A stretch of 64,000 nucleotides of DNA from a virus. Taxonomy: Duplodnaviria > Caudoviricetes. The notes under the pieces were generated by a model. That model was not told the origin of the DNA. It saw only the letters and a program-made list of their open reading frames with translations, and ran no database searches. The position numbers were made by a program, and so were the translations under genes. Where the stretch lies: positions 192,001 to 256,000 of the IMG/VR virus record IMGVR_UViG_3300033498_000048; one strand, written 5' to 3'. Below, one piece after another: positions 28,381 through 30,299 of the stretch. The first letter of the stretch is position 1, and each line of letters opens with the position of its first letter.

Positions 28381-29097
28381 ATGAAAGTTTACAATGTAGA
28401 TTGTTTAGTTGGAATGAAAGAAATTGAAGATAGCTCGATAGACCATATAATATGTGATTTGCCATATTTTCAGGTATTAAAGAATGATTGGGACAATGCG
28501 TGGAAATCAGGACAAGAATATTTAGGATGGATAAATCAAGTAATATTAGAATATAAGCGAATTATAAAGCCAAATGGAAACATAATATTGTTTGTGGGTC
28601 GCCAATATAGTCACAAGATATGTTCAATGTTGGATTTACATTTCACAGAGAAACGAGTCATAATATGGTCAAGAAAGCGAAACTTAAATAACTCTAGGGG
28701 AAAGGCATTATCTAGTGGATATGAATTGATTTTATATTATTGTAATGGTGTTAATGGAACATTTAATAACATAAAAATAAAACGTGAATCTAATAGAAAA
28801 GAATACACCACTGGAATATTAAAGGATGGAGTTAGTTTATCGGATGTATGGGATGATATTCCAGCATTACCTCACAATTCAAAAGAAAAATTAAAACATC
28901 CATCACAGAAACCAATTAGATTAATCCAACGAATAGTCGATTTATTTACCAATGAAAATGATATTATATTAGACAATTGTGCTGGAACAGGTACTACTGG
29001 AATAGCGTGTTTGAATGGTAATAGAAAGTTCATATTGATGGAATCCAACAAAGAATATTGTGATATAATAAATGACAGAATTACTGGCACAGTGTAA
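28381..29097 (+). CDS. DNA methyltransferase, N4-C/N6-A beta class
   Basis: DHIICDLPYF (catalytic motif IV), HPSQKP, ILDNCAGTGTT (SAM-binding motif I). ATG 28381 preferred over GTG 28330. Confidence 0.9.
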   Translation: MKVYNVDCLVGMKEIEDSSIDHIICDLPYFQVLKNDWDNAWKSGQEYLGWINQVILEYKRIIKPNGNIILFVGRQYSHKICSMLDLHFTEKRVIIWSRKRNLNNSRGKALSSGYELILYYCNGVNGTFNNIKIKRESNRKEYTTGILKDGVSLSDVWDDIPALPHNSKEKLKHPSQKPIRLIQRIVDLFTNENDIILDNCAGTGTTGIACLNGNRKFILMESNKEYCDIINDRITGTV

Positions 29098-30205
29098 AGA
29101 ATTGCTTAATGTTTCTAATAAGTATAATTTAGCCTCGGCTGCAAAGCACATTAAGCTTGATGTAATTAAAGCAACACAAGCATTTCCAGATAAAATAACG
29201 TTATCACAAAGAATACGAGCTATTGCTGACAATAATGCTTGTATTTGTCCATATTGTGGAAAGGTACACGGTAATCCATATCGAGATTATTGTAATCAAC
29301 AATGTTACACAAAACATACAACAGCTAATGCTATATCCAACAAAATCAATAAACTAATTCAAGCAGGTGAAATAAAATATGCTGGTTTAGTTGAAGGTGT
29401 CGATTATCTTGTTTGTCAAGTTTGTGGATGTAAGTGTCAAGATGTAGGTAAACATAGTAAAATCCATGGATTATCTGCTACAGAATATAAACTAAAATTT
29501 GGCATTAAGAAAACTAAAGCTGATATTATTTGTAAATATGGAGCAGATAATCCAGGTTATCAACATGGTGGGAAGTTTTCTAAATGGTCAAAGAATTACA
29601 TCCACGGTTATGACGAAGTTGCTCATAAAGAGTTTAAAGAAAAACAGTCTAAATGTAGGACAAACAACCCAACCAATCATTTTTCTAGGGCGCACTATTC
29701 TAGCGATGCTGAATATAGTAAAGCTCAATCCAGAGGATTAGATTATTTTATTAGAAAATATGGCGATGCTGGAATTGATAAATGGCATAATAAAAATATG
29801 AATATGCAGGTATCTCAACCAATTATGTCTTTTAAATCTTTGTGGACAAATAGAAGTGAGGTTTTAGGACATTTCTACATCCTTAAAATATCAACTGATA
29901 AAATAAAAATCGGAATAACAACAAGAAAGGTGGTGAAACGGTATTGTAATAGTGTTGATGTGATAGTTGATTTAGAATGTACAATATCTATAGCATTTAT
30001 GATTGAACAATTAACAAAACGACAATTTATAAACTTTTTAATTGATAAAAATGATGCTGTAACTGGATTTGGGTGGACAGAAACATTTAACATTAATTGT
30101 TTAGAACCGATGTTGAAATCAGTCGATACTTATGTGAATAATACTGATATGTTATCGACTGATTTCAAATCAACATTTAAGTTGAAATACCCTGACCGTT
30201 TTTAA
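29072..30205 (+). CDS. Putative free-standing homing endonuclease (zinc fingers plus C-terminal GIY-YIG/T5orf172-like nuclease)
   Basis: CPYCG..YCNQQC; CQVCG..HSKIHG; GLDYFIRKYG; C-terminal FYILK...KIGITTR....RY. Confidence 0.65.
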   Translation: MTELLAQCKELLNVSNKYNLASAAKHIKLDVIKATQAFPDKITLSQRIRAIADNNACICPYCGKVHGNPYRDYCNQQCYTKHTTANAISNKINKLIQAGEIKYAGLVEGVDYLVCQVCGCKCQDVGKHSKIHGLSATEYKLKFGIKKTKADIICKYGADNPGYQHGGKFSKWSKNYIHGYDEVAHKEFKEKQSKCRTNNPTNHFSRAHYSSDAEYSKAQSRGLDYFIRKYGDAGIDKWHNKNMNMQVSQPIMSFKSLWTNRSEVLGHFYILKISTDKIKIGITTRKVVKRYCNSVDVIVDLECTISIAFMIEQLTKRQFINFLIDKNDAVTGFGWTETFNINCLEPMLKSVDTYVNNTDMLSTDFKSTFKLKYPDRF

Positions 30206-30299
30206 TACTTAGATTGAACAAATCTACAATTGTAATTTCCTCAATGGTATTTGTAGATTTGTTCCTGATTGTTAGTTTTGTTTCTGGTGACACACATTT
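30177..30299 (-). CDS. gp17: Terminase piece 1, exon 2: Walker A Lys plus split intein N-fragment IntN1 (39 aa); absent from the ORF track
   Basis: AAA TGT GTG TCA CCA GAA ACA...ACT TAA = K|CVSPETKLTIRNKSTNTIEEITIVDLFNLSIKNGQGIST*. Confidence 0.9.
   Translation of the reverse strand, partial: KCVSPETKLTIRNKSTNTIEEITIVDLFNLSIKNGQGIST
30216..30264. terminator. 14-bp perfect hairpin inside the IntN1 coding sequence
   Basis: gaacaaatctacaa-N21-ttgtagatttgttc, starting 11 nt after the stop of the plus-strand endonuclease gene. Confidence 0.55.

Follow-up and report, generated by a model that had tools for sequence, protein, structure and literature searches.

An intact homing endonuclease gene converging on the split intein of a phage terL gene, probably reversed and distanced from its partner intein half

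The open reading frame at 29072-30205 of the window (the whole 64,000-nt stretch of phage DNA analysed here) is, judged by its sequence and predicted structure, an intact free-standing homing endonuclease gene. The location of its sequence relatives makes it most likely that the nuclease is part of the split-intein element breaking the neighbouring terminase large subunit gene (terL), and probable that it caused the terL split. On sequence and structural model together, we consider it likely that this is the homing endonuclease of the terL split intein, which would now be reversed and distanced from the partner intein half, IntC1. The fractured-gene layout itself is known; what is new is that the endonuclease gene is reversed, that it is retained alongside a 13.9-kb gap, and that paired hairpins lie at the gene ends. 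The genes concerned are these:

29072..30205, plus strand: free-standing homing endonuclease gene, 377 aa (ORF list, 331 homologue cluster representatives, AF2 model)
28330..29097, plus strand: N6/N4 DNA methylase gene, immediately 5' of the endonuclease (Pfam PF01555, E 4e-45)
30610..30924, minus strand: terL exon 1, ATG at 30924 with GGAG upstream, ending in ...LLSRQMG (PHROG)
30300..30609, minus strand: ORF-less group I intron, 310 nt (Rfam RF00028; splice sites read from the sequence)
30177..30299, minus strand: terL exon 2, made up of the Walker A Lys codon, the 39-aa IntN1 (CVSPETKL...) and a stop (reading frame and tblastn)
14950..16299, minus strand: partner piece, containing IntC1 (115 aa, ...GIVSHN), the terL ATPase core and IntN2 (gene calls)

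The terL gene is broken by a split intein, both halves of which are present in the genome. Exon 1 matched the PHROG terminase large subunit with an E value of 1.5e-25, and no T4-type late promoter (TATAAATA) was found immediately upstream of it. The group I intron was missed by Rfam at the gathering threshold across the whole window and was detected by a local run against RF00028 (56.1 bits, E 1.6e-13; gathering score 50). As read from the sequence, its 5' splice site follows the GGU of a Gly codon (P1 AUGGGU/GCCCAU) and its terminal G is at 30300, and predicted splicing would restore ...SRQMGK|C.... The longest open frame within the intron is at most 33 codons, in line with the sequence-only reading, which had described it as lacking an ORF of its own. 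IntN1 itself occupies 30180-30296 and is similar by tblastn to the IntN of the related loci L006, L025/26 and L041. The piece that starts with IntC1, which is preceded by a kinase-like gene, begins 13,877 nt (about 13.9 kb) from the end of IntN1; joining the exteins gives SRQMGK|TTT, and each terL piece is single-copy in the 305,782-bp genome. The endonuclease gene lies between the two intein halves, that is, between IntC1 (16299) and IntN1 (30177).

The endonuclease ORF starts with an ATG that is in register with the N-termini of its homologues in the alignment, and its stop codon is at 30203-30205. It is the final gene of its plus-strand block, and its first 26 nt are shared with the 3' end of the methylase gene. 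The protein was matched by 331 cluster representatives at E<=1e-3, its full-length AF2 model has a pLDDT of 90, and a PHROGs search of the protein returned no family. The N-terminal two thirds are predicted to be a DNA-recognition module consisting of a helical region followed by a Cys4 ribbon, a MucR-like finger and a highly conserved motif, and the remainder is the nuclease domain:

29240..29305, plus strand: Cys4 zinc-ribbon-like motif CxCxxC...CxxxC, residues 57-78 (motif search)
29402..29521, plus strand: ROS/MucR-like C2H2 zinc finger, residues 111-150 (Pfam PF05443)
29540..29581, plus strand: GxxNPGYQHGGKFS, residues 157-170, the best-conserved motif of the family (alignment)
29819..30202, plus strand: T5orf172 nuclease domain of the GIY-YIG superfamily, residues 250-377 (homologue Pfam matches, model, invariant residues)

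In the family alignment, C62 and C74 of the Cys4 ribbon are almost invariant, the finger ligands C115, C118, H128 and H132 are invariant, and the NPGYQHGGKFS motif has invariant columns at G157, N160, P161, Y163, H165, G166, G167 and S170. The whole protein gave a weak ROS_MUCR match as its only Pfam result (PF05443, E 1.6e-4, 22.2 bits, below the cut-off of 25.4), and the cut-off was exceeded by the homologues P0004, P0005, P0006 and P0008 (27.0-29.7 bits). Because residues 250-377 searched alone against Pfam reached no family at E<=0.01, the PF10544 and PF13455 models included, the T5orf172 assignment is made from the homologues and the predicted structure. Among 51 aligned C-terminal domains of family members, 37 matched PF10544 (T5orf172; best E 2.4e-7) and 26 matched PF13455 (MUG113); homologue P0003 scored 29.6 bits for T5orf172 against a cut-off of 20. 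Y269, K279, G281, R290, E312 and E337 are invariant across these 51 domains, and G334 and T336 also count among the invariant residues of the nuclease domain. In the alignment with Hpy188I, Y269, K279 and R290 correspond to Tyr63, Lys73 and Arg84, and by its spacing E337 would be the metal-binding Glu. The nuclease domain therefore appears from these residues to be of the 'GIY-KIG' kind, as in Hpy188I. It has been reported that T5orf172 nuclease activity depends on a conserved Glu (PMC8263062).

The structural model of the nuclease domain has a pLDDT of 94.5 and the element order beta-beta-alpha-beta-alpha, consistent with the superfamily fold of a three-stranded sheet (GIY and YIG strands) plus Arg and Glu helices. 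A Foldseek search against viral models (BFVD) gave 57 matches at E<=1e-3; the best two were unnamed (E 1.4e-10 and 2.6e-10, TM 0.76-0.83), and the named ones were T5 Orf172 and CapR-homology phage proteins (E 2.6e-5 to 3e-4). In the ESM atlas, the domain reached TM values of 0.65-0.74 with clusters named GIY-YIG nuclease that carry PF10544 or PF13455. Matches to solved structures were weak: Foldseek against the PDB gave nothing at E<=1e-3 for the full-length model or for the C-terminal domain, Hpy188I matched at E 0.11, and the top three chains of a Foldseek-independent search, all GIY-YIG nucleases, were Slx1 twice and At-HIGLE (Z 4.5-4.7). The free-standing endonuclease called by the sequence-only reading, which had asked for a fold check on the C-terminal domain, is thus a homing-endonuclease-type gene with a GIY-YIG-type (T5orf172) fold in the model and conserved catalytic positions.

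The members of this family lie nearly all between the IntN and IntC halves of an atypically split Walker A intein in T4-like terL. Loci of relatives were retrieved with a 10-sequence alignment, similarity to the endonuclease being the sole criterion. Of these 41 loci, 37 have a terL N-part that ends at the P-loop immediately upstream and in the same orientation; the set includes near-duplicate contigs, so that this and the following counts overstate the number of independent observations. IntC and the rest of terL followed downstream on the same strand in 31 of the 41, within 100 nt in 28, as in L006. When loci were instead fetched by the terL N-part alone (n=69, likewise with near-duplicates), 63-65 were unsplit at the P-loop, and none of the 69 had an endonuclease homologue. 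Because the family is tied to that site in 37 of 41 loci, causation of the split by the nuclease and a terL target near Walker A, both of which had already been proposed from the letters of the window, are the best supported of our inferences.

Atypical split inteins of this kind include the later AceL-TerL and GOS-TerL. Fractured genes, in which a split intein is combined with a free-standing homing endonuclease, were described by Dassa et al. (2009, PMC2677866), with one 'Terminase' locus showing the atypical split. In those loci the three genes are adjacent on one strand and the 3' end of the endonuclease gene overlaps the start of IntC (PMC2677866). The same-strand layout is matched by the 37 of 41 relatives. 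As compared to the loci of Dassa et al., the endonuclease gene of the window lies on the other strand, running towards IntN1, and neither adjoins IntC1 nor overlaps it. In the gene-breaking model, dislocation comes after endonuclease loss (PMC2677866), whereas here a distance of 13.9 kb to IntC1 coexists with a retained endonuclease.

The catalytic domain varies within the family. Among 158 family sequences (the query and its matches), 63 have the T5orf172-type motif and 66 have a Vsr-type motif, with the same N-terminal module, and the NPGYQHGGKFS motif is common to both types. The DUF559/Vsr-type catalytic domain is present in P0002 and P0005-P0008 and absent from the window protein, for which the nearest N-terminal match is the Vsr-type P0002 (50% identity). 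Vsr-like (EDxHD) endonucleases, such as I-Bth0305I, are known (PMC3239194; PMC2677866); their domain is found in about half of the relatives, on the same module and at the same terL position, and the window protein has the T5orf172 domain instead. Because T5orf172 replaces the Vsr-like domain on a shared module, the protein would represent a domain swap that occurred naturally inside a single target-specific family. Phages commonly carry T5orf172 homing endonuclease genes, 35% of which lie near terminase genes (PMC10448857). Those of ICP1, T5-like and other phages (Barth et al. 2023, PMC10448857; Odn/Gp88, PMC8263062) likewise have a C-terminal T5orf172 domain and N-terminal zinc-finger modules, and are likewise often beside terminase genes, with frequent decay and domain shuffling. 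They differ in the binding module, which is a MucR-like finger with NPGYQHGGKFS here and CapR/DUF723 repeats there, and in the association with a split intein here. Our literature search found no paper linking T5orf172 genes to split inteins.

The intron next to the gene suggests another partner. In collaborative homing, the kind of model put forward in the sequence-only reading, the endonuclease would cut intron-less terL at the intron insertion site, Gly|Lys of Walker A, and thereby mobilise the ORF-less intron, itself and IntN1. The 3' splice site of the ORF-less group I intron is 95 nt from the endonuclease stop, and the intron and intein insertion sites are 3 nt apart, so that one P-loop cut could serve both. 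There are precedents for intron-linked homing: in ICP1, a T5orf172 endonuclease gene lies beside the N-terminal exon of the intron-containing terL (PMC10448857), and collaborative homing in the cyanophage psbA and T7-like cases is cited in the same source (PMC10448857). Those systems likewise pair an ORF-less intron in an essential gene with a neighbouring free-standing endonuclease gene. The comparison with relatives, on the other hand, makes this reading unlikely. In 22 of 23 distinct related loci, terL-N and the endonuclease frame are separated by 29-227 nt, which leaves no room for an intron, and the only long gap, in L016, holds a second endonuclease copy (the two are in tandem and one is truncated). 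L006 reads straight through ...GRQSGK|C... with no intron, and the intron site is common to two sister phages, one of which has just a 63-codon endonuclease remnant. It follows from the short gaps and the sister-phage remnant that the constant partner of the family is the split intein and not the intron; endonuclease and intron do not co-occur across relatives, and this part of the earlier proposal is not supported. The family thus tracks the intein, unlike the collaborative homing systems, from which the locus also differs in that the endonuclease gene overlaps the interrupted gene in antisense.

The reversed gene meets IntN1 tail to tail. The stop of the minus-strand IntN1 frame is at 30177-30179, and the antisense overlap with the endonuclease gene is 29 nt (30177-30205), which takes in the last nine IntN1 codons (IKNGQGIST) and the stop, and no more. 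Contigs from two other public runs are identical to 30122-30272 and to 30153-30303, with zero differences, which shows that the convergent junction does not stem from misassembly. Two perfect hairpins flank the overlap:

30216-30229 / 30251-30264, no strand assigned: 14-bp perfect hairpin with a 21-nt loop (inverted repeat search)
30113-30128 / 30153-30168, no strand assigned: 16-bp perfect hairpin with a 24-nt loop (inverted repeat search)

The 14-bp hairpin begins 10 nt past the endonuclease stop, within IntN1 codons (RNKSTN / IVDLFN). On the minus strand, the 16-bp hairpin follows the IntN1 stop after 8 nt and falls within the 3' end of the endonuclease ORF. The first of these and the 29-nt overlap of the ORF end at 30205 with exon 2 had been noticed before, and both were reproduced here; the 16-bp hairpin is an addition. 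The hairpins are improbable by chance: the 64-kb window contains six perfect inverted repeats with stems of 14 bp or more and loops of at most 30 nt, against 0.03 expected in 100 Markov simulations. The RNA folding analysis gave -22.5 kcal/mol (z -4.96) for the 16-bp hairpin on the minus strand and -18.2 kcal/mol (z -2.46) for the 14-bp hairpin on the plus strand. The 16-bp hairpin is a candidate 3'-end or terminator structure of the terL-N/IntN1 transcript, and the 14-bp hairpin a candidate one of the plus-strand operon. Each lies past one stop inside the other gene, and the two most likely mark or protect the convergent 3' ends. Neither has the GC-rich stem and clean U-tract of a textbook terminator, and a consensus terminator scan called neither of them. 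Translational hairpins have been described by Dassa et al. (PMC2677866); a counterpart of the 14-bp hairpin, sought as a relic of these, was not found in the IntN region of 23 canonical loci.

The state of the gene in close relatives bears on whether it still homes. The layouts of the P0003, P0049/P0160 and P0161 contigs were taken from gene tables alone. The sister phage that has the remnant (ENA ERZ27277814, 10,352-bp contig; exon 1 84% identical) retains 63 aa of the endonuclease 3' end, 74% identical and in the same convergent position, which shows that the endonuclease is dispensable. For the 113-aa and 149-aa ORFs upstream of this remnant, a search of shorter proteins gave no endonuclease fragments, but it also missed P0049. 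None of the public-run contigs, which are short and of low depth, spans a deletion of the endonuclease or of the intron. Because the intein halves are 13.9 kb apart and the gene is reversed, classical homing here would need a very long copied tract, and for that reason the gene may be an intact but idle relic, with homing lost after rearrangement and the frame still open, kept only because its 3' end harbours the terminator hairpin and runs into the end of IntN1. We regard this as a real, if minority, possibility. It would fit the non-canonical orientation and the 13.9-kb gap, the single copy of the endonuclease in the genome, and the sister phage, in which the surviving last 63 codons include both the 16-bp hairpin and the overlap. 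Against it, every invariant catalytic and zinc-binding residue is retained, the endonuclease is translationally coupled to the methylase gene, and in a strain about 3.6% diverged the frame is unbroken across 776 nt in spite of 28 substitutions and an in-frame 18-nt insertion.

The protein could alternatively have been domesticated, regulating by binding DNA or serving as a nuclease that excludes competing phages, instead of homing. The MucR-type finger and the position of the gene at the end of an operon with DNA-modification genes would agree with such a role, and domesticated proteins of the T5orf172 family are known, for example CapR and Odn (PMC8096241; PMC8263062). The strict placement of the family inside split terL and the decay in the sister phage are signatures of a selfish element, and our analysis gave no sign of a regulatory target, which together make domestication very unlikely.

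Homing at the terL split intein is the preferred account. The enzyme would recognise intein-free terL DNA in a co-infecting relative and cut it at or near the P-loop codons, and repair templated by the endonuclease-bearing genome would copy the element. The home genome would escape cutting, its site being interrupted by the intein and, in this phage, also by the intron three nucleotides away. An ancestral endonuclease gene most likely invaded a contiguous intein, fracturing terL. In the derived state proposed for the present genome, the endonuclease gene would have been turned round so that its 3' end faces that of IntN1, and genes for DNA modification and replication and a methylase gene, about 13 kb in all, would have come to separate it from IntC1. 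The two strong hairpins on either side of the overlap would be a third derived trait. A single inversion of the entire plus-strand block was considered and rejected, as by our reasoning it cannot give the present gene order; on the same kind of reasoning, inversion or reversed insertion of the endonuclease gene alone may fit the order better.

The block of about 13 kb between the terL halves includes thymine-hypermodification, methylase, AlkB-like and primase-helicase genes. It is conceivable, though quite improbable, that the gap of the split intein serves as a landing pad and cargo vehicle, with the endonuclease at the edge of this block within terL. If this were true, a cut at a naive P-loop followed by repair from this genome would transfer the whole stretch to the recipient, intron, IntN1, endonuclease, block and IntC1 together, and an essential gene would be a protected site at which the endonuclease drives the integration of a large accessory module. 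The locus itself represents a stage that the published gene-breaking model lacks, one in which the halves are 14 kb apart and the endonuclease is intact though reversed. The paired hairpins at overlapping convergent 3' ends offer a compact and testable case of gene-end control in phages. Atypical TerL split inteins are protein-engineering tools, and their natural drivers and variants are of practical use. The relatives of the endonuclease make up a sizeable family, so far unnamed, that is tied to a single defined target, the split intein at Walker A in T4-like terminases, and its one recognition module, joined to either a T5orf172 or a Vsr-like domain, may serve as a natural system for catalytic-domain swaps in which the target is kept.

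The neck, terminase, sheath, tube and portal genes keep the T4 order on the minus strand of the window, which spans bases 192001-256000 of a 305,782 bp IMG/VR virus record with direct terminal repeats and a G+C content of about 31%, and the large terminase gene (terL) is split into several pieces, which are listed below with the endonuclease ORF and the two junction hairpins. Each terL piece occurs once in the whole 305,782-bp genome, and no intact terL was found in it.

29072-30205, plus strand: endonuclease ORF, 377 aa
30924-30610, minus strand: terL exon 1, ending ...LLSRQMG
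30300-30609, minus strand: group I intron after exon 1 (boundaries by our own reading; Rfam RF00028, 56.1 bits, E 1.6e-13)
30299-30177, minus strand: terL exon 2, coding for the Walker A Lys, the 39-aa IntN1 (CVSPETKL...) and a stop
From 16299, minus strand: IntC1 piece (...GIVSHN, then TTTAAAY... and the ATPase core), 13,877 nt from the IntN1 piece
30216-30229 / 30251-30264: perfect 14-bp hairpin
30113-30128 / 30153-30168: perfect 16-bp hairpin

In the intron, P1 is AUGGGU/GCCCAU, the 5' splice site has a U.G pair, and the terminal G is at 30300. The sequence-only reading had described the extent of the ORF, its 29-nt overlap with the IntN1 frame (30177-30205), the 14-bp hairpin and an intron without an ORF of its own (no frame exceeds 33 codons), and all of these were confirmed. 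The antisense overlap is confined to the final nine IntN1 codons, outside the ~29 residues alignable to other IntN, and the convergent junction is not an assembly artefact, because contigs of two further public runs, from freshwater and estuary metagenomes, were identical over 30122-30303. The endonuclease is the final gene of a plus-strand block, with a 26-nt overlap between its start and the stop of an N6/N4 methylase gene, and its 3' end meets that of IntN1, terL being on the opposite strand. About 13 kb of other genes separate it from IntC1; by eye, these encode a TET/JBP-like oxygenase, a transferase, a P-loop kinase, a cell-wall hydrolase, a primase-helicase, an AlkB-like oxygenase, an AAA ATPase and a methylase. 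A 794-nt contig from another public run, spanning 29270-30045, represents a strain diverged by ~3.6%; it carries 28 substitutions and one 18-nt insertion that stays in frame, and this lends weak support to upkeep of the endonuclease frame. The six inserted codons are at 29327, in the linker that follows the Cys4 ribbon. A perfect sigma-70 consensus promoter (TTGACA, 17 nt, TATAAT; 12/12) at 30957-30985 on the plus strand lies directly 5' of the plus-strand block starting at 31021 and faces away from terL exon 1. Outside the window, weak IntC-like matches at 173276-173683 and 165056-165316 of the source contig G000:C1 (E 1.7e-5 and 1.2e-3) begin frames of 467 aa and 496 aa, and the genome may contain further inteins of the atypical terL type.

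The placement of the relatives is the decisive evidence. Forty-one loci (36 IMG/VR loci and 5 Logan contigs) were gathered by endonuclease likeness alone and then searched with the terL pieces of the window. The terL N-part was found on the same strand as the endonuclease, ending exactly at the P-loop, in 37 of the 41, and the space between it and the endonuclease frame was 29-227 nt, or 785 nt in one locus where a second, truncated endonuclease copy occupied the gap. IntC and the terL ATPase followed downstream on the same strand in 31 of the 41 (within 100 nt in 28). By comparison, among 69 control loci gathered by terL N-part alone, 63-65 were uninterrupted at the P-loop and none carried an endonuclease homologue within the flanks. 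Both sets include near-duplicate contigs, so these counts are upper bounds on independent cases, but the contrast is clear despite this. The full canonical layout is seen in L006, one of the related loci.

L006 4451-4897: terL-N, ...GRQSGK|CLNIN...
L006 4794-6050, same strand: endonuclease, 418 aa, T5orf172 type
L006 from 6034, same strand: IntC, ...ILSHN|TTT...

Just 5' of this fractured terL, a 195-aa ORF (L006:3871-4458) resembles the terL N-part and the ATPase start, has a degenerate P-loop (DRQIGMTS) and looks like a dead partial terL duplicate. The locus with the 785-nt gap has two tandem endonuclease copies after terL-N/IntN (L016:5332-7747), the first of 232 aa without a nuclease domain and the second of 443 aa and Vsr type. 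As for the exceptions, which are informative, no terL was found in either L032 or L033, and in L002 and L036 the later terL parts (L002:7205-8155, L036:914-1537) are several kb from the terL-N/endonuclease unit and on the other strand; dislocated pieces of a fractured terL are thus not unique to the genome studied here. The last exception is Caulobacter phage Cr30, in which a Vsr-type member is flanked by the small-terminase gene and a terL that is not split. Cr30 is a cultured T4-like phage whose terL is intein-free and whose family member (KF301602.1 97991-99013) is annotated as hypothetical; it offers a handy system for testing the target of the family.

The layout of the relatives is that of the fractured genes in Dassa et al. 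2009 (PMC2677866), whose account includes a single terminase locus, its IntC unusually long, and endonucleases of two types, GIY-YIG and Vsr-like. The three genes are on one strand in the published arrangement and in the related loci, apart from the later terL parts of L002 and L036, whereas the window has its endonuclease and terL on opposite strands. In the model of Dassa et al. the halves dislocate after the endonuclease is lost (PMC2677866), but here they are dislocated while the endonuclease is still intact.

The exhaustive phmmer search returned 331 cluster representatives at E<=1e-3. For the whole protein, PHROGs gave no match and Pfam gave only a sub-threshold ROS/MucR finger (residues 111-150). 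The aligned family members share an N-terminal and middle module with a Cys4 ribbon (residues 57-78), a C2H2 finger (invariant C115, C118, H128 and H132) and an invariant GxxNPGYQHGGKFS motif, and this module carries one of two alternative C-terminal domains: T5orf172/MUG113 (the window protein and its homologues P0003, P0004 and P0009; 63 of 158 family sequences, query and hits) or Vsr-like DUF559/MTES_1575 (P0002 and P0005-P0008; 66 of 158). For its N-terminal part, the window protein is nearest to the Vsr-type P0002 (50% identity) and its nearest full-length match is the T5orf172-type P0003 (37%), a pattern that would be expected from domain swapping.

Assignment of the ORF as an endonuclease, as first proposed, was borne out by the PF10544 matches of the homologues and by the invariant catalytic positions and predicted fold of its C-terminal domain, the nuclease activity being a predicted one. 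PF10544 was matched by 37 of 51 aligned T5orf172-type C-domains, in which Y269, K279, G281, R290, E312, G334, T336 and E337 are invariant. Among PDB sequences the domain profile found Hpy188I alone, with a marginal E of 0.11; Y269, K279 and R290 fall on its Tyr63, Lys73 and Arg84, which according to the Hpy188I paper are the GIY tyrosine, the replacement of the YIG tyrosine and the catalytic arginine. The domain model was confident (pLDDT 94.5) and matched predicted viral proteins (best E 1.4e-10, 57 at E<=1e-3), the named ones being T5 Orf172 and CapR-homology phage proteins, and atlas clusters named GIY-YIG nuclease (TM 0.65-0.74). Foldseek against the PDB gave no match; the best three of 48,161 solved chains were GIY-YIG nucleases (Slx1 twice and At-HIGLE), and their Z of 4.5-4.7 would not be convincing if taken alone. 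The literature treats T5orf172 as a GIY-YIG subfamily; it is frequent among the homing endonuclease genes of phages, and its nuclease activity needs a conserved glutamate (PMC10448857, PMC8263062).

It had also been proposed that this endonuclease mobilises the ORF-less intron by collaborative homing. A precedent is known from ICP1, whose intron-containing terL has a T5orf172 gene adjoining the N-terminal exon (PMC10448857), and only 3 nt separate the intron site from the intein site, so that a single cut could serve the two. Against this proposal, which we consider unlikely, the related endonuclease loci leave no room for an intron, the comparative data tie the family to the intein, and the intron is kept where the endonuclease has decayed. 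The last point comes from sister phages, at least one of which shares the reversed arrangement. The terL piece P0160 (84% identity to exon 1) halts right after SRQMG, and its run-on, ending ...LPM, codes for the same internal guide sequence as the window intron; P0161 (79% identity) halts there too, with a run-on that can encode GCCCAUG in a different frame. The sole endonuclease trace on the P0160 contig is a 63-aa ORF with 74% identity to the final 62 residues; this ORF and the terL piece are on opposite strands, 373 nt apart, versus 384 nt in the window, so the endonuclease is decaying there. The intron and the reversed layout are thus older than the divergence of these phages. Because the relatives lack room for an intron and the intron outlasts the endonuclease, we take intron mobilisation not as the main relationship but, with low probability, as a side effect. 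The 3' part of the intron (30300-30409) has 74-80% identity to the Staphylococcus jumbo phages PALS_2 and Machias, which probably carry related introns; in PALS_2 the similar sequence is annotated under DNA gyrase B.

The 14-bp hairpin is formed by the IntN1 codons RNKSTN and IVDLFN, and the 16-bp hairpin, missed by the sequence-only reading, lies 8 nt beyond the IntN1 stop on the minus strand, within the endonuclease ORF; each thus begins 8-10 nt beyond the stop of one gene, inside the other. The window holds six perfect inverted repeats of >=14 bp with loops <=30 nt, versus 0.03 expected by simulation, and two of the six border the 29-nt overlap. The fold of the 14-bp hairpin is -18.2 kcal/mol (z -2.46, plus strand), and that of the 16-bp hairpin is -22.5 kcal/mol (z -4.96) on the minus and -25.5 kcal/mol (z -5.45) on the plus strand. 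A comparable repeat in the IntN region was absent from all 23 canonical loci, so the hairpins go with the convergent arrangement. Their simplest interpretation is that they terminate or stabilise both convergent transcripts; we keep this role conditional because they are AT-rich and long-looped, and neither was called by the consensus terminator scan. The scan made a single terminator-like call, on the minus strand: a perfect 15-bp palindrome (28329-28361; loop of 3 nt) across the methylase gene start (28330). Two further long perfect hairpins, at 25113-25172 (19 bp) and 60603-60648 (16 bp), have the common core TAGCACTTGGAA, suggesting a repeated hairpin element, and loops of 21-24 nt occur in four of the six. 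The remnant surviving in the sister phage is the segment with the 16-bp hairpin and the IntN1 overlap, which is consistent with the terL side constraining that segment.

We conclude that the ORF encodes a predicted free-standing homing endonuclease of T5orf172 type, from a family specific to the split intein at the Walker A of terL. Judged by comparison with its relatives, its most likely ancestor is the element that fractured terL, and its predicted target is most likely intein-free terL P-loop DNA.
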